DNA from: Eledone cirrhosa
Taxonomy: Eukaryota
Length of the DNA stretch: 64,000 nucleotides
NCBI GenBank assembly: GCA_964016885.1
Contig: OZ024743.1
Coordinates: 299,956,001 to 300,020,000, forward strand
Direction of reading: 5' to 3'
Positions 4,990 through 62,618 of the stretch are shown here, piece by piece (position 1 is the first letter of the stretch; the number at the start of each line of letters is the position of its first letter). Position numbers and translations under genes: made by a program. The notes below the pieces were generated by a model. The model was not told the DNA's origin and did not search any database. It saw nothing but the letters and a program-made list of their open reading frames with translations.

Positions 4990-6180
4990 TCGCAAAAAGT
5001 GTTTAGAGAGTAATGGGCATCATTTTTGATCCTTTTCACCTCTTCGAGATCGACGGTAAGGTGTCTTAAAAACGGAACCCATCCAAAATATGTATGTATG
5101 TATGTATGGTCTTCCATTTCTGTTATTTTATGAAGTTTTTCAAATAGAGAGATAATCAGCTTCTCGGGATTTGTACTGAGGCAGTAGTAACATACCTCAG
5201 AAGAGTGTGAGATCAACACCGAATCTATTACAACGCTGCCTGCAATGACAATTAAATCTAATATAAATCTACCCTCCCCAACAGTTCCAAAGAAGGGCAC
5301 ATCGAAAACGAAGTCACGCCCATAAGAAAATAAAAGCAGATGTATTGATGCCATGAGTAAAGTCACTCACACAATGCAGTTCTGCAAGGTATTGGAAACC
5401 AATGGTTATCTAACATCCTCCACAAATAGAATACTGAACACCAGGCGCGGAAACCGGAGCAGATTAAGCTTAAGATCCTACACCTCGGCAAAACAGTAAG
5501 CAGTATTATCTCCAGAGCCACCAAAGAGATGCTTATCCAGGAAACAACTCCAAAACGAAAAGAACACGTGCTCTCTTAGGAACTGTCCAATGCACATCAC
5601 ATGCCATTGCTTGCATGCTTATGTTGTATATAGTCTAGAATGTGACAAATTTAACAGTTATTACATCGGCAGAATATTTCGGTCACTGCGCATTAGAATT
5701 AAAGAACACGTCACCCCCATCTTCTCATCATTTCAGAAGCTCGTCTTTAAACGCGGAAACAAAGACAAGAGACTCACAGTTACGGCACAAGCCATAGAAC
5801 ACAACTTAGGCCCTCTGCGCTTCAACGAAGCCTTCTTTATAAAACAAATCGAAAACTCTATCAACCACATACTGGAAAGGAATGAGACTCAATACCTAAT
5901 TTGACACGGTTACCAAACTATTTAAGCAAACGAGAGAAAACCTAAATTAACGAACAATGACAAGAAACAAACTACAGAGCAGTGAAAGCATCGAACTCTC
6001 AATCGAAATACAGGTTGATCTTTACCGGAATGTGACATGTCACATTAACACAATTACATCTATTTTCCTGTTGGTCAGCAGGCCACACAGAGGTTTTTTA
6101 TATGCCTCGGTTGCGACATCCGAAATGTAAAGACGAATAAATACTTCCACGGTAAAATTATTTCCAGTTAATTTCCTTTT
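4990..6180 (+). mobile_element. Decayed Penelope-like element: RT C-terminus, GIY-YIG endonuclease, 3' UTR; possible inverted RT piece at the 5' end
   Basis: ORF 5590-5904 has VVYSLEC..YYIGR..RSLRIRIKEH..EAFFIK (GIY-YIG of PLEs). An upstream NGY motif lies near 5400. The minus strand at 4990-5170 reads ..ITEMED..GWVPFL, resembling the RT FT.E.E..LPFLD motif. Confidence 0.75.
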
Positions 6181-9962: not shown

Positions 9963-10673
<711 letters not shown>

Positions 10674-11185: not shown

Positions 11186-11374
11186 TATATATATAGTGTA
11201 TGTGTGTATATAAGTTGCCTATAACAACATAAACAAGTGGAATAATAGATTTGAATACGTGAAAATAATCATTAGGTTTTACCTTGCCCATTTCCTATCA
11301 CTACTTATTTGACTGTGTAAAATGTCTACCATACTAAAATATGGAATGATACGCGGCGATGCCCCCCCCCCCCC

Positions 11375-11885
11375 CCCAGCCCCGGTGGACAGAATGGAGA
11401 AGGCGTTTCCCCGGAGGACGGCAAGGGAGACGCGCTGAAAAAGCCACTCCAACTCGCGGGGACCACACCTGCGTCTGGCCAGCTCAGTGCCTATGGTAGT
11501 TAGTAGGGAGATAGCCCTAGGACCGAGGGCACCAGAAGTCTCCATTGCCAAGGGCAGGACAACGAAGCTGTCGGAAAGCGACCGGTATTTAAGGAGTTTG
11601 ACCTCCTCAGCCCGACGTGCAGCAGAACCTAGGTTAGTCGCAGACTGCAACAGGTTGCGGCTGGAGAAAGTGTCAGTGTAAGTGGCATCCCAGACGAGAG
11701 GATTGCCACCGCGGAAAGGGAAGATGGTTATACCGCCTGGCCTTTTGCCATCCCATCGGTCCAGCCCCACCGGCTCGAGCTGAGAAGGGAAGCCTGCAGC
11801 GTCCAAGCCATGCTTTATGACCTCGTTGAGTGCAGCATGGCGTGGAAGGCGACCGACACAGTGGCGACAGGAAAGCGGGTGGAGG
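11375..11885 (-). mobile_element. CRE-clade non-LTR retrotransposon 3' fragment (restriction-like endonuclease domain)
   Basis: HPLSC..RHAALNEVI..LEPVGL.R.DGKRPGG.T..PF..G..LVWDAT..E..K..KY..P.AMETSGA.G..FQRVSLAVLRGNA, the typical CRE RLE C-terminus. Confidence 0.88.
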
Positions 11886-11998
11886 TTAAACATAAATATT
11901 TGATTATTGTAGTTATCGTAATTTATTATTCCTTTATTAAGATTTTGTAATTGCATCCTAGGAATAAATTAGTAGTCTATATCTTTGACTGCAATTAT

Positions 11999-13358: not shown

Positions 13359-14012
13359 CTAGAAGTGTATATAGTGTTTGCTTGAAAGCAGTCACTATAC
13401 TTCCGTGGTTACTCTACCGTGAGGGAGTTAGAGACAATAATGAGAGGTATACAAATATATGTGTATACATACATATACCTGTATATATAAACATATAGTT
13501 TTCACAAGTATGTGAGCTTGTATGTTGTAGACCTTAACCAGTGTTACTCTATGATTATGAGAGACAAGATAATCGAAATAATTAAATTTACACAATATCA
13601 GAGTTATGTAAAATATTATAAAAAGGAATAATAGATACAATGTACCTATTTTTTTGTTTAGTCCCGACTGTAGTTAGCGTTCTTCCCTGAGGTTATCTCT
13701 TGATAAGCTGGCTTACCTCACAACAATGTTACATATCTATGATATTAAATTTTTGCATAGTGACCAGCGAAACTGTAAGTCGGGACTAAACAAAAAAATA
13801 GGTATATGATATCTATTATTCCTTTTTATAATAGTTTACATTACTCTGACATTGAGTCAATTTAATTATTTCGATTATCTTGTCTCTCATAATCATAGAA
13901 TAACACTGGTTAAGGTCGACAACATACAATCTCACATACTTGTGTAAAATATATGTTTATATATACATGTATATGTATGTATACTCACATATGTGTATAC
14001 CTCTCATTATTG

Positions 14013-15166: not shown

Positions 15167-15897
15167 TATTTCCGACTAAATAAACATGAATCATTCGAAT
15201 TGAACTTCTGTCAAGCTGAAGAAATGTACTGGCTAATTTCATAATAATCTGTATCCTAAATTATATACACAAATATAAACTATCAATATCTACCACAACA
15301 TTACACAGCTACTAAAAATCCAGAACAATACTGAAAAAGCATTCTCGAAACTAACATTTAAAGTTCAAATTTTAGGCACACGCAAAGACACATAAACGCG
15401 CGCACACACGCACATACAGAAAAACACATACGCACACACACGCACACAAACACACACATAGACAGTCATACGCATACACACACACACACACATATACACT
15501 CATACGCACACACACACACACGCATATACACTCATACGCATACATACACACACAAACAAGCACATATAAATAATAGCAGGAGCATCATTACACTAGACTT
15601 ATATCCCGTGAAGTACAACGACAATAACAAATTCCGTACGGAATTTTAACCACAGCTTCTATCGCCTGCACTTGATGCTGCCACCGAGTGAATGAATATG
15701 TGTCCTGTCAGTTTACATTTCACACACATATTTATATATAGAATTGATAGTTTATATTTTTGTATATAATTTAGGATACAGATTATTATGAAATTAGCCA
15801 GTACATTTCTTCAGCTTGACAGCAGTTCAATTCGAATGATTCATGTTTATTTAGTCGGAAATATATATATAGAAATGTGTGTGTGTGAAATGTAAAC
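15167..15897. repeat. Interlocked inverted repeats (15167-15287 / 15743-15863; 15711-15740 / 15865-15897)
   Basis: About 120 bp near-perfect reverse-complement match, itself bracketed by a shorter inverted pair. Confidence 0.85.
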
Positions 15898-17230: not shown

Positions 17231-18234
17231 CTACCATCATAAATATAATGTTTATAATAGTACGTGTATCTAAAGCCCAACCCCTGCATTGTTTGGCTGA
17301 CATTTTATATCATAAATTCATATTTTAAATCTTTTTGAATATGCATGAAGACTCTATGAAATGACAATTGTATAATTCCTATTAGCAGGGATGGTCGTGC
17401 TCTATACTGAATAAACCAATCCAATAGATACAGTGCTATAACACTGCAATAAGAATTATTTTGCTGAAAGGCAACTCCGACAAAACAAAAGTTTTCAGCT
17501 ATGACAAAGATGCAAAATATAAAACATGAACTATATTAAATTCAGGTTGTTAAATACAGAGGCGCTATGAAATAAATATTGCAAGCACACCAACATTTAT
17601 TGAGAGAATCTTCAGATACATTCGAACTTATATAAATATTATTAATGTAATAATAAATGTTTAATGTGACCACTGCTTACAATCGAAAGTGAATTAACAA
17701 ATGAAGATAACCAGAAGCAAAAGAAATATAACGTTTAGAAGACATAATTCAGATTTACAAATTGAAATATGGAAAATTGCGTACAGGCTTTAAATTCACA
17801 TAAACGGTGAGGTATATGAAAATCTGACATTTCCCTCCATTTAGAAGCTTATGCCATAAATCTGATATTTAATATATGGATATTTTTCCATAGTATTTCA
17901 TTTCGAAACTATCTTCCCGTTATAAATGTATAAACACCATTTATAACAGAATATAACATCAATATGTATATTATAACATACGGCACCATATATTCTACTA
18001 AAAATGTGAAATACAAATCAGTTATAATATATCCTGTTTCCTCAGTAGAAAATATGCATAAATCGTACACGAAGTTGAAGTAATGATTATTTTACAGAAG
18101 TGTGACCACGTCCGTTTCCATGGCTAATGATTGTCGATGCTATTTCACTTTTTCTTTTTTTTTTCACAAAACAAACATTTATTTACAATTGTTTATAACT
18201 TTGTCTATTAATCCGTATGGTGAGTAAATGGAGT

Positions 18235-19067
18235 CCCCCGGCAGGCAGGATGGAGAAGGCGTTTCCCCGGAGGATGGTAAGGGAGATGCGCTGGAAGAGC
18301 CATTCCAAATTGCGAGGCTCACACCTGCGGCTGGATTGCTCAGGGCATATGGTGGCTAATAGGAAGGTAGCCCTAGGGCAAAGGACACCAGAACACCAAT
18401 GCCAGAGGCACGACCGCGAAGCTGTCGGAGAGCGACCGGTATGTGGAGAGTTTGGCCTCCTCCGCCCGATGTGCAGGAGTATCTGGGTTAGTCGCAGACT
18501 GTACCAGATTGCGGCTGGAGCAAGTGGCATCACGGACGAGGGATTTGCCACCGCGGAACGGCAAGATGGTCATACCGCCTGGCCTTTTACCAAACACTCG
18601 GTCGAGCCCTACCGGCTCGAGCTGGCAGGAGAAGCCTTCAGCGTCCAAGCCATGCTTAATGAGCTCGTTGAGGGCAGTATGGCGTGGAAGGCGGCCGGCA
18701 CTGTGGCGACAGGAAGCAGGTGGAGTCCGAAAGATTCCGCGGTGGATCCACAGCGACATTTATGTGACTCGCAGATCCGGAGTCGAAGTATCACGGAAAC
18801 GCTGATGCGCAGGCTATCGTTATCCAGCCGCATGCCAGTGGAAATGGAAGGCAAAGCATGGAGCCAAGCACCACTGTGGGGTTTGCAGGCCGAGCGAAAA
18901 CAGGCAAGGCGGTGCTGGTCGAGCTGGTGCGTGAGCCTGTCTAAAGGCAAGCTGCAGTGGATGGCATCCCATACGCTTTAGGGGGACTTGACATAAGAAG
19001 AGGGAAAAGGAGGAGGAACGTTTACCGGCTAAGTCCCATCGTGTCCCACATCTCACAGGCGATCTCA
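18235..19067 (-). mobile_element. CRE-clade non-LTR fragment (CCHC knuckle plus RLE), frameshifted
   Basis: HSGAWLHALP..GMRLDNDSLRI..LRL..HKCRCG..FGLH; RHTALNELI..LEPVGL..KRPGG; FQRISLTILRGNA. Confidence 0.9.
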
Positions 19068-21800: not shown

Positions 21801-22174
21801 AATCTGAATCCACAGTTTAGTAATTCGATTTATCTCTTTCAAGTTGAAATCACAACCCTAATGACGCATTTTACTTTATAAAATAGCCATTCTAAAGCTT
21901 AGATGATATTCAATTGCATTGATATATGGCAGCTGAAATTTAAAATATGTTATTTAATTATATAGAAACGAGCATTTTTGAATGGTATAAAACACTTCCC
22001 TCAACAAACAATAATAAACTGAAAACCGAATATTAAACGAAATCTACACTATAGTATTCGTATCTAAAACACATTTACATAGGAAATCCTATATCTGAAA
22101 CCACATCAACGAACTGTCAAAAGCATTATAATCAATATTATAAGAGCACAATTAAAACACCTTGTTACTGACAC

Positions 22175-23350
22175 TTGAGAAAGTGTCGCAGCAAGTGGCA
22201 TCACAGACGAGTGGTTTGCCACCGCGGAACGGGAGAAGGTCATACCGCCTGGCCTATTGTCATCCATTCGGTCGAGCCCCACCATCTCGAGCTGTGAAGG
22301 GAAGCCTGCAGTGTCCAAGCCATGCTTAACGACCTCGTTGAGGGCAGCATCGCGTGGAAGGCGGCCGGCACTGTGGCGACAGGAAAGCGGGTGGAGTCCG
22401 AAAGAATCCACGGTGGATCCACAGCGACATTTATGTGGCTCGCAGATCCGGAGTCGAAGCCTCATGGAAACGCCGATGCGCAGGCTATCGTTATCCAGCC
22501 CCATGCCAGTGGAGAAGAAGGACAAGGCGTGGAGCCAGACACCACTGTGGGGTTTGCAGGCCGCGCGAAAACAGGCAAGGCGGTGCTGGTCGACCTGGCG
22601 CGTGAGCCTGTCTGAGGGCAGGCTGCACTGGTTGGCATCCCATACGCTTTGGGGGGACTTGACGTCAGCAGGGGGAGAAGGAGGAGGAACATTCTACTGG
22701 GCTAAGCCCCATCCTGTCCCACGTCTCACAGGCGATCTCACCTTACTTGAACTCAGAGGGTTCTATTGTGTTTTGTAGAAACCTGCTGACGAGGACGCGA
22801 CATGAGGTTACCGATGAAGGAACCGCCGGGAAAGCGATGTAGATCGGGGACCGTAGGCCAAGGCCGCCAAATCTGACAGGTAAAGTGGCCTGTTGCCATC
22901 CAATGTCGTCAAACTTGACGTTGCATATCTCCTCAGCTGCCGCTCGGATACAAGTATCGAGGTCCCCGAGGAGAGATACGTGGCTGTAGCACGGAGCGCG
23001 GCGAAGGGTGTAGAGGAGCTTCGGCATGGCAAAGCAGTTCCTCAACAGGAAGAGAGCTGGGTGGTCGTCGATCAAGCCCAGTCGGCTTGTGAGGGTCTAG
23101 AGTTTTTGGAGCCTAGACCTGATGGTGGAGCGGATGGCCGGCGAGTAGATCGGTGACACGAGGATGAGGACATCCTTTTTCGGGGTCACCTGTACCTGGT
23201 GGAGAATGGACCACACGTCCAAGACGGAGGTTGCAAAGCTCTCAGCATCATAACTGACATTCACCACCTCTGACTTCGACGAGTTGACCTGGAAGCCGAT
23301 TCCCGCCAGGGAAGGAACCACCGATTGAAGGTCATTGCAGACAGTCTCAA
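22175..23350 (-). mobile_element. CRE-clade non-LTR fragment: RT C-terminus, thumb, CCHC knuckle, start of RLE
   Basis: GFQVNSSKSEV; HPALFLLRNCFAMPKLLYTLR..WQQATLPVRFGGLGLR; CRCGSTVDSFGLHPLSC; RPGG. Confidence 0.92.
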
Positions 23351-25584: not shown

Positions 25585-26196
25585 ATTTCTATATTAGATT
25601 GGATATATGAAGCAATGTATAGTTCACTTGAAGCATTGTATATGGTTTAAAGAAGTCGAAATTTGAAAGCCTCAACAATGCAGGCTTTGAAGGAGAATAA
25701 TGAAATTGTATGACACAGGGCCTGTTTTTTACCTTAATTTATTCATATGCTCTGATATTTTGAGATTAATATCTCTTCTTTCGAGAGAAATAAAGGAACT
25801 ATTCCAGTGCCTGATGTGGCTTGCTATACCATGCTCAGAAGAAGAGATATTAATCTCGAAGTATCATGACGTGAAAAAATTAAGGCAAAAAAAAACAAGC
25901 CCGGTTTCTTACGATTTAACTATTATCTGTCCAAACCTGCACTCTCGTGGCTTTCACACTTCGTATTCTTTAACTATTTATTTATTTATTTGAATATGGC
26001 AAAGTCGGCCATTAATCGCCCCTATACAGGAAATTGACTGGCCTGTCTGCTGATATGAAAATCTGGCTGATCAGTGGATTTGTTAATATGAGGATCTGAC
26101 TGATCAGCCAGTCTGCTTATATGCAAATCAGGCTGATCAGTCACTGTATATTTTAGAAAATATCATATATTTTCACTAGTTGGCAGGTGAACAGTG

Positions 26197-26244
26197 AACT
26201 GTACTGATGAAGGGTGATACCCAGAAACATTAGTGTCTGCAGTT
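26197..26244 (+). ncRNA. Type I hammerhead ribozyme
   Basis: AACTGTA-CTGATGA-A GGGT GAT ACCC A-GAAA-CA TTAG TG-TC-TGCAGTT. 7-bp stem I, GUC site at 26235-26237. Confidence 0.88.
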
Positions 26245-32980: not shown

Positions 32981-33256
32981 AAGAAAAAGGGATGAAATCG
33001 AAAATGCAACTGAAGTCTTATTTTTAAAAAAAATATATATATTTATTTGGTTCCTTTACCGGTTTCGCAGTTCTTCTGCTTTTCAAAAGGTGAGTTGAGA
33101 TGGAGGGTCTGTGGTTTTTCTCACATCTGAAAAGCAGAAGAACTTTTTGAAAAGCAGAAGAACTGCGAAACCGGTAAAGGAACCAAATAAATATATATAT
33201 TTAAAAAAAAAATAAGACTTCAGTTGCATTTTCGATTTCATCCCTTTTTCTTTATA
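32978..33256. mobile_element. Fold-back with ~110 bp near-identical arms, each with an outward-pointing HHR
   Basis: 32978-33089 is the reverse complement of 33144-33256. Confidence 0.92.
33053..33090 (-). ncRNA. Minimal type I hammerhead, U3:A8 variant (mirror 33143-33180 on plus)
   Basis: CCTT-TTGAAAA-GCAG AAGAA CTGC-GAAA-CCGG-TA-AAGG. Confidence 0.82.
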
Positions 33257-35330: not shown

Positions 35331-36422
<1,092 letters not shown>

Positions 36423-40869: not shown

Positions 40870-42074
40870 GATATATTAGTTGTAGAAACTAATTTGTTGG
40901 CAGACTTGCACATATAAGTCTTTTTTGAAATCTTTCGTCATCATTTTCATTCTGTCGTCATAAACGATCCACCCATCTTTCACACTCTGTCACACACACA
41001 CTGCCACTATGTTTCTCTGTCGACAGCATAGACTTTTCACTCTTCCCCTTCTTCCCTCCTACTACGTATACGTTGTTGGGAACAGACAGACGGAGAACAG
41101 CTTATCTATTATAATATAGACAAACACAAATAATTTATACCCTACTGTATTTATTGAATTATATTCGTATGGCTTGTGTTTTCAACCTATGTATGTATGT
41201 ATGTATGTATGTATGCATGTATGTATGTATGTATGTATGTATGTATGTATGTATGTATGTATGTATGTATGTATGTATCTATGTATGTATGTATGTATGT
41301 ATTTATGTATGTATGTATGTCGTCTCCTACGGTTTTTATCGTCTGTGCGGGGATAGTCTTGTGATTCTACTCTCTACTAAAAGGCCCCAAAACGGATTGC
41401 ATATGGCCCAGTTCCTTAAAGCCTTGCGGAGGTGTTTGAAATTGATAAAGAGAAGGGGAGAATACGAGTTACTGGCACCATAAATCTAAATACCCCGTGA
41501 ATGCAGGACTCGGGAGTCTGGTAAAAGTGTTACTCTAATGTCAATACAGTGGTACTGTGTCCGCAACACTGAAAGTAGGTAGTGCTATTTAACAGTGATA
41601 AATGAGGTCTACCTAGGAAAATGAATACTCCAAAATGTAATGCAATTATACTAGACCAGAGACTACTAGTATAATGCACTAACGCGCAATATACACTTAA
41701 GAACGAGATTCTTCAGACCTTTTAATTAAAAGAAATCTAGCAGAACACAACTCCGAAATAACACCAATTTCTTTTACCCAGACAGAGATGATGCACCTGT
41801 TGGTTTCCGAAGCAACTGGTCTCATAGATGAGGGTCTTTGCATGCCCGAATGATGGAAACAGTGACGTCCAGCATGATTTATGCAATCAAACACACACAT
41901 TCGTAGACGACTTTAAAAACCAGAAGCCGGGCTCAACACCACAGAATAAAGCATTAATTTTCAGCGATAATCATATTCGTCTAATGAGTCGACAGTAATT
42001 ATTATACGTATATATTTATGTATACGCACACGCACACGCACATACACACACACATACACTCACACGCATGTATA

Positions 42075-42960
42075 CGAGGTGTGTCAGAAAAGTTCCAGGA
42101 CTGATGTCACAAAAGATTTATTTCAAACCCAAACTTCACACTAAGAGGTTTCTCCTTCAAAGTAATTCCCCTGGAGTATGTAACTGTAATCTTAGCTCTC
42201 TGCATCGATCAAACTTTTTTCTTCATAATTTTATATACATGTCCTCTGTTTCAGGTCGTCAAGCAATGAGCACAGAGCAACGAACAAACTTGAAGTTTCT
42301 GGTACGGTTGGGGAAAACTCCGACAGAAGCGCTGGGATTGTTGCAGCAAGTGTATGGAGATGAGACGATGCCACGCTCGCGTGTGTTTGAGTGGTGCAAG
42401 ATGACCCCAGGAGCGAAGGGCCCTCAACAACCCGGACTGAGGTCAACGTTGAGCGCGTCAGGCAGATAGTGCGTAGCGATCGGCGGCCGACTGTTCAACT
42501 GATGGTAAATGAGCTGGGCATGAGTCAAGAGAGCGTCTGGAAGATTCTCAATGAAGATTTGGACATGCGGAAAGCCTGCGCGAAGATGGTGCCAAAACTG
42601 CTGAACGATGACCAGAAGGGTCGATGCATGCAAGTGTGCCAGGACAGCCTCGAGCGTCTTGAAACCGAACCAGACTTGCTAGGGACAGTCATCACCGGTG
42701 ATGAGTAATGGATCTTCGAGTACGACCAGGAGGGGACCCATTTTGAAGACGTGGACGACATCAAAAAGGCCGTGACGACGGACTTGCAGAGGATTCCGGA
42801 AGAATCCTTCCAGAAGTGCATGCAAGCGTGGCAGGAAAGGATGGAAAAGTGCATTAGACTCTAGTGGGATTACTTTGAAGGAGAAACCTCTTAGTGTGAA
42901 GTTTGGTTTTGAAATAAATCTTATGTGACATCAGTCCTGGAACTTTTCTGACACACCTCG
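42075..42960 (+). mobile_element. Mariner transposon, internally deleted, ~96 bp inverted termini, TA target duplication
   Basis: TA|CGAGGTGTGTCAGAAAAGTTCCAGGACT ... AGTCCTGGAACTTTTCTGACACACCTCG|TA. EQRTNLKF.VRLGK, MVPKLL, VITGDE*WIFEYD joined directly to the C-terminal F.DV..IK..YFEG. Confidence 0.95.
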
Positions 42961-49991: not shown

Positions 49992-50999
49992 TGTGTGTGT
50001 GGGAAAGTAGAGAAGTGACACTCGAGTTGATATGTATACAAGAAATAGTGAAAAAGACAAAAAACACAGTAGAAAATTCTAAAGGGGTTTTCTCTCACAA
50101 TAACATTAAAACATTTACTTACAAAATAGGGATTTCCGCATTTATTTGTACCGGTTTCAGCTTATATGCTTTTTCACCGACGGAAGTGTATAATGCAATT
50201 AAATTGCATATTAATAAGAATAATAAGTATATGGAAAAAAATGTGTTTTTACATACATATTTAGGAAGAAAAGTTCTATATTATCGTACATAATACCTCT
50301 TCTAACACCTGCTTCATGAAATTACCACATTTCAGGGAAAGCAAACCCAGATCTATGCGCAGAGCTATCCACAAAGAAGGATTGGAAGTACAAGTAGCAC
50401 ACTCCAGCCCTTCACTGCTTGGATACCTGTCTACAAAGCAATCAAGAGACAACAATAATCATATATATATAAACATTTCAGGTTATCAATAATGTATTGA
50501 TAATATATCATCACGTTAGAGTTGAACAGCGTACGTGTAGGTTTGCTCAACGAGTATAAATTATATTCCGGAGAAAATGTAGAAAAGATGAATATAAAAT
50601 GAAAGTGCTTTTATAAAGGAATTTATTAGGTATTAACACATGTTTCTGTAACAGATGGAATACCTATGTATCGCTGCTTGCGTAATCATATAATGTTAGC
50701 AAGTATTCAATAGCAAATGTATAATCAGTTGTCACTTCTTCAGAGATAATGGTTACATTTGAAAAAATCAGAAACATTGAAGTATTTATATTAGTTGTAA
50801 GAAAGGAAGAGGTGAGGGGGTAGTATATGACGGATGGCAATTCAATTTACAGGTAAACAAGTATCTAAAAGGTTTCTAATGAGAATACAATGAGTATATG
50901 GTTTATTTTATCTAAATAAGAATTTTTGGTTAAACCGTTCCCTAAACTATTAAATCAATCCCTAGAAATATTTCCCTTAGGATCTCCCGCCTGTCGTCC

Positions 51000-51975
51000 A
51001 ACCAGAAAAGCTTCAAAGAACATGCTGAATATTATGATGATGCACTTAGGAAGGCTGGACACCTAGATAATATATAGTATATAGTCGACGATCACCAAAA
51101 CACACAAAATAAATCTCATAGTGGTAGAAATAGCATAGAATCACCACCATACATACAGTACCGCACTAGACACACTAATAGTCGCACACCACCAAACAGA
51201 AGGCGATGTAAAGAGTATACATGGTACAACCCGGTCTATAACAAATCTATTAAAACCAATCTACCCTCACAATTCTTTCGATTAGTTAAAAAACACTTTC
51301 CAACATCACATAAATATAATAAAATCTTAAACCCTAACAATATTCGACTTTCATATTCAACCGCCCCTAATATTGAACAATATATAAAAAAGATTAATGC
51401 AAAACGGTTGTATAAACGCCTTCCAACACATAACAATACACGTAAAACATCGGCTATAACATTACAAAACAACAAACAAGATCTCGTCCTACCTAAGCAA
51501 CCTCATCAACCCTTCCATGCCAATACAACAACGCAAAATTATAACTGTAACTGTGTCCAACCAGGAATGTGTCCGTTGAACAATCAGTGTCTTGAACGCA
51601 ACATCATATACAAATGTACTATCGTATCGGATAGCCAGAAGTGGTACTATGTGGGGTCTACAGCAACCTCCTTCAAATATCACCTTTATAGACATCGTTA
51701 CTCAATAAAACATGAAAACCAGCGTTATGTAATAACACTCGCAGACAAGGCTTGGCAGGTGCGCGAAAATAACCAACAATTTAACCTAAGATGTGATATA
51801 ATAGTGTATGCCCCTGCATTCCCACGGACAGGAATTTTGTAAATTGTGTAATATGGAATTATTTTGTATTATGGAATCCAAAAATATTTTATTAAATAAC
51901 AGAATAGAGCGATCGTTATACTGTAAGCATCGCTTGAAATCTACATTTTCATATTACAAACACTACCAGGATTGA
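51000..51975 (+). pseudogene. PLE RT thumb/linker plus GIY-YIG endonuclease, frameshifted
   Basis: YDDALRKAG; WYNPVYNKSIKTNL..F.RLVKKHF; RLSYSTAPN; CNC..CPLNNQCL..IIYKC..YYVGSTATSFK; CKLC..E; LNNR.E..CKH. Confidence 0.9.
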
Positions 51976-52449
51976 ACGCGTGTCTCCATCTCCGTTTGAT
52001 TGTCAAAATACATATTAACCTTCTCTATTAGTCTTAATTCTATCAACTCTTCTATTCTTTACCATTTAATATAAAGTGCTATAGATAAAATGAGATTTCT
52101 TAATTCAATTCCCTAATGCATATACCAACAGGCTACCAGCATTGTTGTTATTCAGTAGCAGTGAAAATCTCCCTCTTCCTTAATTGACACTTTATATCTA
52201 TTAATACTACTAAACCAAACGACCAGCCCTGTCCATTGTTCAATTGGCCAAGTATAGATTAAAATAGGCACTCCAAAAAATTATTATTTTGATAAAACCA
52301 TATACTCATTGTATTCTCATTAGAAACCTTTTAGATACTTGTTTACCAGTAAATTGAATTGCCATCTGTCATTACTATCCCCTCTCCTCTTCCTTTCTTA
52401 CAACTACTATAAATACTTCAACTTTTCAGATTTTTTCCTATGTATCCAA

Positions 52450-52568
52450 TATCTCTGAAGAAGTGACAACTGATTACACATTTGCTATCGAATACTTGCT
52501 AATATTATATGATTATGCAAGCAGCGATACATAGATATTCCGTCTGTTACAGAAACATATGTCAATAC
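52450..52568 (+). ncRNA. Hammerhead motif in the pseudo-LTR with ~90 nt stem II
   Basis: CTGAAGA (52455)-A GTGACA..TGTTAC A-GAAA (52552)-CATATG-TC. Stem I is weak. Confidence 0.6.
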
Positions 52569-52616
52569 CTAATAAATTCCTTTATAAAAGCACTTTCATT
52601 TTATATTCATCTTTTC

Positions 52617-53420: not shown

Positions 53421-55256
<1,836 letters not shown>

Positions 55257-55625: not shown

Positions 55626-55657
<32 letters not shown>

Positions 55658-56522
55658 TAAGACAGGGGGGAAGAAAAACTGGCTTCACTTGTGCTTTCAA
55701 CAAATTTATTTTCTTCACAAAATCCAAAAAGAATTTTTTTCCGGATTAGAAACATTTTTGTTTTTTTTCTTAAAAAAATTATTTTATAAATTAAGTTGTT
55801 GGTTGTTGGTTAGGTCTTAGGAGTTCTTGGTTAACGTAGGAGGTATTGTTTCGTTTTTAGAACGACCTTTCACGCTGAGGTGCGCTTGTCAATCTGATGT
55901 GTATGTGGTGTGTTGTTCTATATATAGGGATTTAACATGTACGTGGTGTGGTGGGGGTTTCTTTTCTCCCCTTTAATAAGTGTATGTGTGTAGGTGTGTT
56001 GAAAAAGTGTTAATAGCAGTAATGAGTTTAGACGGTGAGTAGGGTTGGGTGGGGAGAAATGTAGCAAGTGCGGCATGCCCCAGTCATTCTCGAAACATTC
56101 CTTTATTCAGGGGAAAAAAGCTTTTAGTATTCCTTTTGTGTTGAGAATGGTCACAGTCAAATCGCACCTGCCAAGTTTGTAAATAATTATTTTTTTCATA
56201 TTTTCTGAAGAATTTTTCTACGTCAATCCCAAAATTAGTCCTTTGTTCAACACACACATATTTGCGTATATACGTACATACACACACGGGCATATGTAGG
56301 AATATATAGGCACACACCATCAATCACACACCCATGTACAAATACATCCACATACATACACAAGAACATATAGAGACACATATAAAAACAGATATACACA
56401 TACGTACACACACGAATATGTACTCATACCTCTACAAGGGTATATATATATATATAACGGCATTCCTGTCTTAACGACATCACAACTTTCTCCGCTTGGC
56501 CTGTTCCCCCCCTTTTGGAACT

Positions 56523-56560
56523 ATCCCCCGTTGATGGGCGTGAGCCCGAAATATTGGGAT
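56523..56560 (+). ncRNA. Minimal HHR scaffold with mutated core, inside a ~250 bp insert unique to the left palindrome arm
   Basis: ATCCC-CCGTTGA-T GGGC GTGA GCCC-GAAA-TA-TT-GGGAT. Confidence 0.6.
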
Positions 56561-56705
56561 TAAATCTCCACTACGGTAACCCTTCTGCCTTTGTTTTGTT
56601 TTCATCCTTGTCTCTCTCAATTTTCACTTTCACCTGTTTTTCCTATCTATCTTTCACTTCCTACCTCGAGATTTCCCTCTGCATTGTTGTGGCTTTCTTA
56701 ACTAC

Positions 56706-56772
<67 letters not shown>

Positions 56773-57051
56773 CATACATATACATATACACACATATACA
56801 CACATATATATATATATATACACATATATATATATATATACATACATACACATACATACATACACATACATACATATACACACATAAAGATACATAACTA
56901 AATTTACATATATACACATACACGCACACATACACACACACTCACACACACATACACACGTGTATACACACACACACACACACATATACATATGTCCGTA
57001 TATATACCACCGTTCACACATACATGCATACACACACACACATACACACAT

Positions 57052-57081
<30 letters not shown>

Positions 57082-57082
<1 letters not shown>

Positions 57083-58471
57083 AAGAATTCATATCTAGTA
57101 ACATATATATACATACAGATGCATATCAATGCTAGCAAATATATACGTTTTGTCTTAATAACAGTGTGGTTCAATGCATGGGGTTGCAGAACAATAATAT
57201 AAGAGACGTAAAATAAGAAAATTATAAAATTAACTTACTTACTAAAATATCACTTCCAACTAATTAGTTTCTGGAATGGAGTAAATATATTTTCCGAAGA
57301 ATAATATAGAGAAGCATTCCGTCGTCAGAAAAGTCTATTCTCATGTAGGTTTCCAGGCAAAGCGAGGACACTGGAAACTTATTAAAAAATAATTCAGGGG
57401 ATAGGAAATAGCGAAGCGTGGACTGAATTCCAAGCCATTGAGAAAATCACTGCCTCTACGTCTGTGGCAAATTTAAAAAGAATCGAACACGTGACTTCGA
57501 GGTCAATCAGTGGAAAGTGGTTTGCTAATAAGACAGCGGCCTGCCTACAACCGTAGCAGCAGTCATGGCCAATATTGCTCGACAAATAATTTGGAGATAA
57601 TAATAAAGAATTCCTATCTAGTAACACATATATACATACAGATGCATATCAATGCTAGCAAATATATAGGTTTTGTCTTAATAACAGTGTGGTTCAATGC
57701 ATGGGGTTGCAGAACAATAATATAAGAGACGTAAAATAAGAAAATTATAAAATTAACTTACTCACTAAAATATCACTTCCAACTAATTAGTTTCTGGAAT
57801 GGAGTAAATATATTTTTCGAAGAATAATATGGAGAAGCATTCCGTCTTCAGGAAAGTCTATTCTCATGTATTTACTCCATTCCAGAAACTAATTAGTTGG
57901 AAGTGATATTTTAGTGAGTAAGTTAATTTTATAATTTTCTTATTTTACGTCTCTTATATTATTGTTCTGCAACCCCATGCATTGAACCACACTGTTATTA
58001 AGACAAAACCTATATATTTGCTAGCATTGATATGCATCTGTATGTATATATGTGTTACTAGATAGGAATTCTTTATTATTATCTCCAAATTATTTGTCGA
58101 GCAATATTGGCCATGACTGCTGCTACGGTTGTAGGCAGGCCGCTGTCTTATTAGCAAACCACTTTCCACTGATTGACCTCGATGTCACGTGTTCGATTCT
58201 TTTTAGATTTGCCACAGACGTAGAGGCAGTGATTTTCTCAATGGCTTGGAATTCAGTCCACGCTTCGCTATTTCCTATCCACTGAATTATTTTTTAATAA
58301 GTTTCCAGTGTCCTCGCTTTGCCTGGAAACTTACATGAGAATAGACTTTTCTGACGACGGAATGCTTCTCTATATTATTCTTCGGAAAATATATTTACTC
58401 CATTCCAGAAACTAATTAGTTGGAAGTGATATTTTAGTAAGTTAATCTTATAATTTTCTTATTTTACGTCT

Positions 58472-58476
<5 letters not shown>
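57082..58476 (-). mobile_element. Retrozyme-like array, 523-bp unit (1.5 copies), plus inverted copy 57870-58476
   Basis: HHRs at 57252-57334 and 57775-57857 (minus) are exactly 523 bp apart. Confidence 0.9.
58345..58427 (+). ncRNA. Type I hammerhead with long stem II (copies 57252-57334 and 57775-57857 on minus)
   Basis: ACTTTT-CTGACGA-C GGAATG..CATTCC A-GAAA-CTAATTAG-TT-GGAAGT. Confidence 0.82.
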
Positions 58477-58543
<67 letters not shown>

Positions 58544-58974: not shown

Positions 58975-59211
58975 GTGTGTATGCCTCTCTCTATGTATGT
59001 ATATATATATATATGTGTATGTGTGTATGTTGATGTGTGTATGCATGTATGTGTGAACGGAGGTATATATACGGTCATATGTATATGTGTGTGTGTGTGT
59101 ATACACGTATGTGTGTGTGTGTGTATGTGTGCGTGTATGTGTATATATGTATAATTAGTTATGTATCTTTATGTGTGTATATGTATGTATGTGTATGTAT
59201 GTATGTGTATG

Positions 59212-59252
<41 letters not shown>

Positions 59253-59297
59253 ATATATATATATATATATGTATATGCGGGTATATGTATATGTATG

Positions 59298-59379
<82 letters not shown>

Positions 59380-60454
59380 CATGTGGAGAGATGAGTACAT
59401 ATTCGTGTGTGTACGTATGTGTATATGTGTTTTTATATGTGTCTCTATATGTTTCTGTGTATGTATGTGGATGTATTTGTATATGGGTGTGTGATTGATG
59501 GTGTGTGCCTATATATTCCTACATATGCCCGTGTGTGTATGTACGTATATATGCACATATATGTGTGTTGAACAAAGGACTAATTTGGGGATGGACGTAG
59601 AAAAATTCTTCAGAAAAAAAGAAAAAAGTAATAATTTACAAACTTGGCAGGTGCGATTTGCCTGTGACCACTCTCAACACAAAAGGAACACTAAAAGCTT
59701 TTTACCCTGAATAAAGGAATTTTTCGAGAATGACCGGGCAGGCCGCACTTGCTACATTTCTCCCCACCCAACCCTACTCACCGTCTCAACTCATTACTGC
59801 TATTAACACTTTTTCAACACACCTACACCCATACACTTATTAAAGGGGGAGAAAAGAAACCCCCACCACACCACATACATGTTAAATCCCTATATATAGA
59901 ACAAAACACCACATACACATCAGTTTGACAAGCGCACCTCAGCGTGAAATGTCGTTCTAAAAACGAAACAATACCTCCTACGTTAACCAAGAACTCCTAA
60001 GACCTAACAAACAACCAACAACTTAATTTATAAAATAATTTTTTTAAGAAAAAAAAAAAAAAATATTTTTTCTAATCCGGAAAAAAATTATTTTTGGATT
60101 CTGTGAAGAAAATAATTTTGTTGAAAGCACAAGTGAAGCCACTTTTTCTTCCCCCCTGTCTTAATATACCTATCTGTACCAAGGATTACACACATTTTCC
60201 AATATATATTTATATATATATATATATATAGATACATATATATATATACATACACACACACACATATATATATATACACACAAATATACACACGCATACG
60301 TACACATACACACATACACGTATACATAAATAAATAAATATATATAAATATATATATATACACACACACACATACACACACCTACATATACACATATACA
60401 CACATATATATATATACATATATACATATATAAACATATATATATATATATCTA

Positions 60455-60485
<31 letters not shown>

Positions 60486-61401
60486 CATAAAACATGTCTA
60501 TAGAATCAATCAGATATTAAGATATATACTATTTCTTCCTCTAATCAGCATAATTAACCATATACAAAATCAAATCTAGCAAGCTTTATGAATACATTTT
60601 CTTACGGAGAAATCCCTGACAAACAATTGATCGTAGCCTCTTCGCAGCAGCTCCGTTCCACTATTTATCAAACATTTCGGCAGCATGCGGAATCTGATCA
60701 AATATACCATCAACCGCACTTAATTAGTAGTAAAATTAAACCTAGAAGAAATGCGCATATACCGTAATTATATCCCTACCTTGGTTTCTTCCTTATTTAG
60801 GAAATCCAAATAATATGGAAATATCCTGAGTTAGGTTTCATCAGGGGATAAACTCAGAATCAGACATTTATTTTCTCAAACCGACCGCGCCAAATTTAGA
60901 TTCAAAAATGGCTAAGATCGCTATGTTGCTGTGTACCAGCCAGAGAGAAAGCGTGTGATCGGTTGCTTACGGCCGGTAGGCTTGCTGCTAGAAAGCGCAG
61001 CCATATATCGCCAAATTTAATCTCAACCAATTGGAAGATTATTAAATATAAAGGTTATCACATACATACAATTAAATCAAAGATATATATATATAATGCT
61101 CTGATTTTTTATTTTAATTTATTAATTCTTCATTGAGCTTAAAAGTGAACAGTTGCAACATATATATATCTTTGATTTAATTTTATGTATGTGATATCCT
61201 TTATATTTAATAATCTCCCAATTGGTTGTGATTAAATTTAGCGATATATGGCTGCGCTTTCTAGCAGCAAGCCTACCCGCCTTAAGCAAACAATCACACG
61301 CTTTCTCTCTGGCTGGTAAACAGCTACATAGCGATCTTAGCCATTTTTGAATCTAAATTTGGCGCGGTCGGTTTGAGAAAATAAATGTCTGATTCTGAGT
61401 T

Positions 61402-61480
61402 TATCCCCTGATGAAACCTAACTCAGGATATTTCCATATTATTTGATGTCCTAAATAAGGAAGAAACCATGGTAGGGATA
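61402..61480 (+). ncRNA. Type I hammerhead ribozyme, intact core
   Basis: TATCCC-CTGATGA-AACCTA..TAAGGAA-GAAA-CCATGG-TA-GGGATA. Cleavage predicted after 61474. Confidence 0.88.
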
Positions 61481-62076
61481 TAATTACGGTATGTGCGCAA
61501 TTCTTCTAGGTTTAATTTTACTACTAATTAAGTGCGGTTGATGGTATATTTGATCGGATTCCGCATGCTGCCGAAACATTTGATAAATAGTGGAACGGAG
61601 CTGCTGCGAAGAGACAACGATCAATTGTTTGTCAGTGATTTCCCCGTAAGAAAATTTATTCTTAAAGCTTGCTAGATTTGATTTTGTATATGGTTAATTA
61701 TGCTGATTAGAGGAAGAAATAGTATATATCTTAATATCTGATTGATTCTATAGACATGTTTTATGCTATAATGCTCTGATTTTTTAATTTTAATTTATTA
61801 ATTCTTCATTGAGCTTAAAAGTGAACAGTTGCAACATATATATATCTTTGATTTAATTTTATGTAAGTGATAACCTTTATATTTAATAATCTCCCAATTG
61901 GTTGAGATTAAATTTGGCGATATATGGCTGCGCTTTCTAGCAGCAAGCCTACCCGCCGTAAGCAACCATCATACCCTTTCTCTCTGGCTGGTACATAGCT
62001 ACATAGCGATCTTAGCCATTTTTGAATCTAAATTCGGCGCGGTCGGTTTGAGAAAATAAATGTCTGATTCTGAGTT

Positions 62077-62156
62077 TATCCCCTGATGAATCCTAACTCA
62101 GGATATTTCCATATTATTTGGATGTCCTAAATAAGGAAGAAACCATGGTAGGGATA
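62077..62156 (+). ncRNA. Type I hammerhead ribozyme, intact core (third copy 60771-60850 on minus)
   Basis: TATCCC-CTGATGA-ATCCTA..TAAGGAA-GAAA-CCATGG-TA-GGGATA. Cleavage predicted after 62150. Confidence 0.9.
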
Positions 62157-62549
62157 TAATTACGGTATGTGCGCATTTCTTCTAGGTTTAATTTTACTAC
62201 TAATTAAGTGCGGTTGATGGTATATTTGATCGGATTCCGCATGCTGCCGAAATGTTTGATAAATAGTGGAACGGAGCTGCTGCGAAGAGGCTACGATCAA
62301 TTGTTTGTCAGGGATTTCCCCGTAAGAAAATTTATTCTTAAAGCTTGCTAGATTTGATTTTGTATATGGTTAATTATGCTGATTGGAGGAAGAAATAGTA
62401 TATATCTTAATATCTGATTGATTCTATAGACATGTTTTATGATATAATGCTCTGATTTTTTATTTTAATTTATTAATTCTTCATTGAGCTTAAAAGTGAA
62501 CAGTTGCAACATATATATATCTTTGATTTAATTTTATGTATGTGATAAC

Positions 62550-62618
<69 letters not shown>

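Follow-up and report, generated by a model that had tools for sequence, protein, structure and literature searches.

Layout of the element and its hammerheads

The window, a 64,000-nt stretch of animal DNA rich in microsatellites from the 3.0-Gb assembly of Eledone cirrhosa (contig OZ024743.1), carries an element composed of two arms that diverge from a common centre. The long arm (57080–57870, minus strand) comprises positions 434–523 of a repeat unit, a full 523-bp unit (57780–57258) and positions 1–178 of a further one, and the short arm (57866–58478, plus strand) comprises positions 491/496–523, a full unit (57899–58421) and positions 1–61; unit positions are counted from the predicted hammerhead cleavage site. 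The arms meet head-to-head at 57866–57870 with an overlap of 5 nt (4/5 matching), and the inner arms of the palindrome show 99% complementarity over 577 nt. The outer end of each arm is bounded by (TA)n, with target remnants at 57062–57081 on the left and 58474–58533 on the right; such repeats on both sides would hide any target-site duplication. Only the long arm terminates in the tail, i.e., unit positions 62–178 (57080–57196, minus strand). The unit is non-coding (longest stop-free stretch of about 80 codons in six frames), and the G+C content is 33% in 56001–58000.

The initial annotation had reported two minus-strand hammerheads separated by 523 bp together with a mirror copy on the plus strand, and we found the same arrangement, with cores at 57851 and 57328 (minus) and 58351 (plus). 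The motif scan and unit mapping likewise agree with its description of a 523-nt unit and of type I hammerheads whose stem II is extended, the predicted site is GUU in all three, and its retrozyme-like reading was right. Hammerhead 1 (57775–57857, minus strand) has the core CTGAAGA at 57851–57845 and a predicted cut at 57781/57780, while hammerhead 2 (57252–57334, minus strand) has the core CTGACGA at 57328–57322 and a predicted cut at 57258/57257. Hammerhead 3 (58345–58427, plus strand) mirrors hammerhead 2, with the core CTGACGA at 58351–58357 and a predicted cut at 58421/58422. At 57871–57904 the plus strand also bears a hammerhead 3' half without the core strand, severed by the inversion.

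The motif is a type I hammerhead of three helices, with helix I open and covariation in helices I and II. Stem I counts 6 bp; stem II, also of 6 bp, lies beyond the core and a C.A apposition and is followed by an internal loop of pyrimidines and then a distal hairpin whose loop is cUUCGg, and stem III is the palindrome CUAAUUAG. Eight representatives were compared, two from the window and one from each of six sister subfamilies (68–88% identity); the core CUGANGA, GAAA and U16.1-H17 are present and invariant save for N7, with GUU as the site. Helix II is 97.9% paired with two two-sided pairs, helix I is 82.6% paired with one, and helix III is invariant, scores that are biased in favour of the structure since it was derived from the same eight sequences; slid controls drop to 36–49% paired. 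Two-sided changes occupy 13 cells vs. 5.1 in shuffles (0/500) and involve 7 pairs vs. 4.2 (22/500). The non-canonical C.A apposition intervenes between the core and the first G-C pair of stem II in 8/8 representatives, none of which has a G10.1-C11.1 pair stacked straight on the core, and in family copies C460 is found in 154/156 and A509 in 168/168 segments. Core positions vary about as much as the background across these copies. Rfam gave 0 matches in the window at the gathering score. The stem-II pattern has 278 exact matches in the 3.0-Gb genome, against 0 for its reversed control, and these matches, together with the compensatory changes across the eight representatives, argue that the hammerheads are not a product of chance.

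Real covariation comes from the sister subfamilies and not from the private variants of this locus; the two cited in the initial annotation are not evidence of selection. The A at N7 (CTGAAGA) occurs in 1/155 segments and is private to this insertion, and the U-G variant of the U-G/C-G pair in stem I occurs in 2/148 segments, both being mirror copies of this insertion. The terminal-vs-internal sequence difference at the locus was also discarded as private to this copy, which with 13 changes per kb is among the more decayed of its family. Five changes are common to the mirror arms of the locus and absent from their tandem neighbours, the most plausible cause being conversion between the arms. 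For the 96-nt motifs the folding z-scores are not significant (0.22, 0.66), the hammerhead fold costs 1.3–3.3 kcal/mol above the minimum in 105-nt windows, and for the 789-nt arm the predicted probability is 0.14–0.32 for stem II and 0.00 for stem I. The proposal that transcription either way would meet a ribozyme holds for the order of the sequences, but the predicted read-through RNA is 96% paired with a stem II probability of 0.00 in both minus-strand motifs; it would be expected to fold into dsRNA that blocks the ribozymes.

The host palindrome and the repeat families

The element was thought to form the centre of a giant palindrome. Judged by sequence, that palindrome is a hammerhead element nested inside an unrelated older repeat, whose left (55653–57061) and right (58985–60168) arms lie outside the element. 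The outer arms are 91% alike over 55653–56387/59431–60168 and belong to a family of 93–96% identity with 1346 candidates in the genome, in which the unit is absent from 11/11 other loci. The young element occupies a TA run where the left outer arm ends on its inner side, and it looks central because 250 bp are inserted on the left and about 450 bp of spacer lie on the right. The 250-bp insertion (about 56456–56706) is itself found in a TA run of that arm and has no match among the loci compared. The outer family is microsatellite-laden, shows a tandem period of about 670 bp in locus L042, and has no hammerhead core in its unique part.

We found several other repeats in the window. A second hammerhead family (60481–62552) has a 676-bp unit with a long stem II in head-to-head orientation and 2578 candidates in the genome. 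At 50582–52616 a truncated Penelope-type element with an ORF (frame 51078–51842) and a degenerate hammerhead-like core in its terminal repeat is inserted as a palindrome; this family counts 57162 candidates, has near-intact frames of 740–800 codons elsewhere in the genome, and its ends lie 107 nt apart. A GIY-YIG remnant at 5500–5904 is akin to a second Penelope-like element (PLE) family, which has frames of 881–923 codons at other places in the genome. Two more short motifs of the type I hammerhead occur at 26204 (plus) and 20783 (minus), with close relatives in the unrelated loci L076, L048, L183, and L187. Palindromic or tandem-plus-inverted repeats between TA runs, probably insertions of the same kind, are located at 9969–10567, 13490–13957, 15167–15863, 25647–25973, 32981–33252, 35549–36175, and 53425–55086. 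Decayed coding remnants of other mobile elements were noted at 11279–11968, 18199–19067, 22106–22778, and 41999–42469; the two scanned gave no Pfam match.

A genome search with the unit returned 2834 candidates, the best 40 of which show 95–100% identity, and by sequence the locus is one copy of a young dispersed non-coding family with several hundred recent copies. We mapped 82 loci: 29 of 30 from the genome search (one overlap dropped), 13 of 30 from the stem-II pattern (overlapping ones dropped) and 40 others; L137 and L138 appear to represent a single insertion that was duplicated, and two insertions are present in L131. The unit has two fixed 3' ends about 120 nt apart, at 61 and 178–184: of 151 arms, 73 end at 176–185 and 56 at 59–65, and 127/129 of these standard ends adjoin TA repeats. 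The 52 head-to-head insertions combine a long with a short end in 40 cases, two long ends in one and two short ends in none, with another end in 11; in loci chosen by the pattern alone, regardless of ends, long and short ends are paired in 24/31. Central junctions mostly overlap by 1–7 nt. The longer arm may be headed by either end type (L006, L014, L025), which implies that both ends are start sites; in L006 the short-end arm reaches about 1400 nt and its partner 147 nt. Two ends are also found in the sister 543-bp family (71–74 and 185–192) and in the 676-bp family of the window (296 and 411), and across these families and the ORF-bearing PLE family of the same genome, whose ends are 107 nt apart, the distance is 107–120 nt.

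The cDNAs run seamlessly through the 1/523 junction, and tandem units each carry a complete type I hammerhead, one unit apart, in arrays of up to nine units. The longest array, L124 (G000:C1:170795500-170805400), consists of nine 521-bp units and a short inverted arm; its inner units are nearly identical, eight of them being almost free of private changes, which the end units do carry, and one change is present in two non-adjacent units. Inner array neighbours have 5.3 changes per kb in common and differ by 5.1, the corresponding values between loci being 0.2 and 16.3. Long arrays therefore look, from their sequence, as if they had been duplicated after insertion. At the lineage marker 368, mirror arms agree in 15/16 cases (Fisher p 0.003) and tandem arms in 16/16; the mirror-arm agreement could also stem from conversion. 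The family is star-like: no locus pair among 3321 has more than two common derived alleles, and hence no source-daughter pair above this level was found.

We found no ORF with reverse transcriptase and GIY-YIG endonuclease in the unit or attached to it (82 loci, by unit boundaries), and no DNA common to the unit and an autonomous PLE in the two ORF families sampled, with 783-aa and 881-aa frames. In the 881-aa family, Pfam recognises a reverse transcriptase and, weakly, GIY-YIG. The 783-aa protein is without a Pfam match and resembles the endonuclease region of the 881-aa family only weakly (E 2e-5); judging by its motifs, we take its family to belong to the Neptune clade.

A five-base hot spot in stem II

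Sequence variation in the unit is concentrated at positions 470–474, in stem II. At the locus this hot spot occupies 57307–57311 in hammerhead 2 (minus strand; U473 = 57308, A474 = 57307), 57830–57834 in hammerhead 1 (minus strand), which bears the allele CTCCA and differs from its tandem neighbour at 473, and 58368–58372 in hammerhead 3 (plus strand). U473 is located where the internal loop meets the distal hairpin. In 159 segments the minor-allele frequency is 41% at 473, where all four bases occur, 22% at 472, 15% at 474 and 8% at 470, falling to 0.6% at 475, with a unit mean of 1.0%; position 473 is thus around forty times more mutable than the unit elsewhere. The stem-II pattern fixed the bases from 475 onward in about half of the loci, yet the 36 loci not selected by pattern have an identical profile. 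The changes span 470–474, often two or three at once, and are mostly substitutions (120/159, with 2 gaps and 1 insertion); G is the rarest change at 473 (12/66).

The allele is redrawn within single insertions. It differs between the outermost and the next unit in 19/28 arms and between mirror arms in 15/26, but between inner neighbours in 0/15; in L028, three passes carry three hot-spot alleles and yet one rare change at 517 in common. The alleles recur on both 368 backgrounds, and their frequency is independent of copy age (26/42 in young, 30/41, and 35/48 in old copies; p 0.19). The sister subfamilies provide natural controls. One with the same CTC-TA context has the same spectrum, 60 of the best 100 of 293 copies being changed in a by-eye count, while one without the U-A step has no hot spot (43/46 identical) and in a second without it about 90 of the best 100 of 351 fall into two lineage alleles. 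No equivalent hot spot was seen in the 676-bp or ORF-bearing family; since it is absent there and from two sister subfamilies, it does not represent a general step.

The context of the short start site (unit 57–69; 57201–57189, minus strand) shares 12/13 bases with that of the hot spot (unit 473–485; 57308–57296, minus strand). None of the mapped arms ends at 477, which corresponds to that start site, and 5' ends do not accumulate at 474 (one arm at 473). Separate high-depth contigs of 59–60 nt centred on 58370–58371 occur in three runs of one sample (of four runs, all consisting of contigs and uninformative on starts, strand and level) and are an indirect sign that hot-spot alleles exist outside the assembly.

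Several causes of the hot spot were discarded. CpG decay does not apply, as 473–474 is not a CpG and 13/14 CpGs stay below 5%, and DNA mutation after insertion is at odds with the lack of an age trend. Quasi-palindrome correction predicts A at 470–472 only and reciprocal changes at 495–498, which stand at 0–1%; slippage to the look-alike 57–69 accounts for 470T, 471C, and 472T only, and A-to-I editing for too few types, every substitution type being present. Three-allele sites in the 676-bp and ORF families turned out to be subfamily markers. In the published literature, taken mostly as open-access main text, we found no report that hammerheads of retrozymes or PLEs have a mutation hot spot at a fixed place, although the accessible part of PMC4209133 describes PLE hammerheads as highly variable in general.

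Mobilisation, and comparison with known systems

We consider it probable that the non-coding 523-bp hammerhead repeat is mobilised in trans by a Penelope-like protein, both target strands being primed at two internal RNA sites. This reading is supported by the two fixed ends, the (TA)n flanks and the pairing of long with short arms, by the two ends 107–120 nt apart in the sister 543-bp, 676-bp, and ORF-bearing PLE families, by the agreement of marker 368 within insertions, and by a purified lizard PLE which, as far as the accessible text of PMC11167929 describes it, cleaves both strands, extends them and initiates at two internal sites matching the tail. The GIY-YIG endonuclease would open both strands of (TA)n, and each 3' end would prime at 61 or 181 of the same RNA, or of RNAs from one locus. 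Both cDNAs would then extend upstream across the 1/523 junction and be joined by microhomology into a head-to-head palindrome with one tailed end. We infer all of these RNA-level steps, as well as those that may underlie the hot spot. There, the template would be broken at U473/A474 with stem II holding the ends together (predicted probability 0.55 for a monomer opened at 473/474); the enzyme would add one or two untemplated bases, an activity described in general terms in PMC3185545, and resume in register, giving a new allele at each pass. After insertion, duplication and gene conversion likely shape the longer arrays and the arm-to-arm identity.

That an RNA break crossed by untemplated addition and an in-register jump makes the hot spot has, in our estimate, a little less than an even chance; it is suggested by the redrawing of the allele between passes, the missing age trend and the repetition in the CTC-TA sister subfamily. 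More tentatively, every reverse-transcription pass may cross this break in stem II, so that tandems and pseudo-LTRs of the clade would be regenerated by template jumping there and not at the ribozyme cut. Inner neighbours are identical at the hot spot in 15/15 and mirror pairs in 11/26 cases, which calls for homogenisation after insertion or for a second, break-free route. Against the reading as a whole stand the lack of shared DNA with the two ORF families, the missing 5' pile-up at 474, and a recent assay in which 1/9 retrozyme dimers cleaved (bioRxiv 10.64898/2026.07.22.740005, in the part accessible), cleavage of the present motifs being a prediction.

The data are compatible with a circular template, yet they do not require a monomeric circle, and long arrays look amplified after insertion. 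In a classic retrozyme, the hammerheads would excise the 523-nt monomer, a host ligase would circularise it, and the reverse transcriptase would roll round the intact circle, misreading a modified or damaged U473 at each pass. Such circles have been shown for coral, mussel, and axolotl retrozymes (PMC7229834, accessible text) and suit the complete motifs exactly one unit apart in tandems, the seamless passage through the 1/523 junction, the 9/28 arms that keep one allele out to the outermost unit, the allele common to the nine-unit array and its inverted arm, and an error peak confined to one base. We nevertheless find this scheme doubtful: changes extend over 470–474, often several at once, and also affect 474, a position copied ahead of 473; the nine-unit array, with clean inner units and a non-adjacent common change, fits later duplication; a single circle does not give the five mirror-arm changes absent in tandem neighbours; and the main substrate of the purified PLE is unprocessed RNA according to the available text of PMC11167929. 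It is rather improbable that 474 marks a transcription start in stem II, from which a linear 573-nt RNA would arise with its first hammerhead split and its 3' end cut by the second, the 50-nt terminal repeat permitting strand transfer of the LTR type, by which the upstream promoter is restored. A start there would explain the one-sided error profile with its sharp edge at 474/475 and the fact that 12/19 outermost new-allele units stop within 423–463, soon after the site, against 0/9 same-allele units; Penelope transcripts, too, begin inside the pseudo-LTR, for whose regeneration the accessible part of PMC2377424 knows of no mechanism. Yet the unit contains 14 initiator-like matches, which makes any one of them little informative, a cap predicts a G opposite, the rarest change at 473, and two sister subfamilies would also need a start site but show no scar.

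The inverted arm might also be a fold-back copy of the first cDNA or the product of an antisense template, with the alleles representing master lineages mixed by RNA template switching. We regard this as quite unlikely, since the short-end arm of L006 could not be copied from its much shorter partner, no locus pair of the star-like family exceeds two common derived alleles, and one allele spectrum is common to the two 368 backgrounds and a separate subfamily. It would, however, account for the five derived alleles common to the mirror arms here; moreover, pairs with unlike hot-spot alleles diverge over the rest of the unit at about the between-locus rate (17.8–18.1 against 16.3 per kb), and self-priming was proposed for rotifer Penelope palindromes (PMC3846280, text available). 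Finally, the complete motifs on both strands could be taken for a functional bidirectional ribozyme cassette, retained to cut transcripts from either side. The head-to-head arrangement is, however, a routine insertion product (52 cases in 82 loci), core positions are as variable as the background, the predicted read-through hairpin is almost fully paired without stem II, and the locus copy is among the more decayed, which makes such a function highly improbable.

The element is of a known kind, a non-LTR retrozyme and non-autonomous PLE, and palindromic tailed insertions are known as well. In the text available (PMC7229834; bioRxiv 10.64898/2026.07.22.740005), metazoan non-LTR retrozymes likewise consist of AT-rich tandem units that code for nothing and carry one type I hammerhead each, with a palindromic stem III; they too are dispersed and co-occur with PLEs. 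The unit falls within the 51–972 bp range given in the bioRxiv preprint, although it is longer than the first-described RNAs of 170–400 nt. In contrast to the retrozymes described there, domain II, of about 50 nt, includes an internal loop and a distal hairpin, copies with several arms are mostly head-to-head, and the hot spot inside stem II changes per insertion. With endonuclease-bearing PLEs, as far as PMC8557442, PMC3846280, PMC11167929, and PMC2377424 are accessible, it shares partial tandems, an inverted 5'-truncated copy, a one-ended tail, two start sites downstream of the hammerhead, and (TA)n targets. Unlike them, the unit has no ORF and no DNA in common with the two ORF families checked, and its tail of 117–120 nt exceeds the usual 30–40 nt, which counts against our preferred reading of trans-mobilisation. 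PLE hammerheads and the axolotl HHR_Amex2 (PMC4209133, PMC7229834, accessible parts) are alike in their type I topology, in a long helix II, in an additional nucleotide following A9, and in a palindromic helix III suited to dimers; in Amex2, which cleaves weakly, helix II is likewise mismatched at its base. As compared with those descriptions, the extra A before G12 that produces the conserved C.A apposition and the three pairs of helix III set the present motif apart.

What is new is the five-base hot spot redrawn within single insertions, with one sister subfamily that has it and two that lack it as natural controls. It points to one exact RNA bond, U473/A474, and if the template is indeed broken there, the genome would store a per-pass record of the jump in hundreds of copies. 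Reverse transcriptases of Ty1, retroviruses, and R2 make errors at template ends during strand transfer or template jumping. These errors are comparable in being clustered, in-register substitutions at one template position, made at copying; in contrast to them, the site described here lies within the stem of a ribozyme, at a distance of 50 nt from the cut which that ribozyme is predicted to make, and depends on the U-A step.
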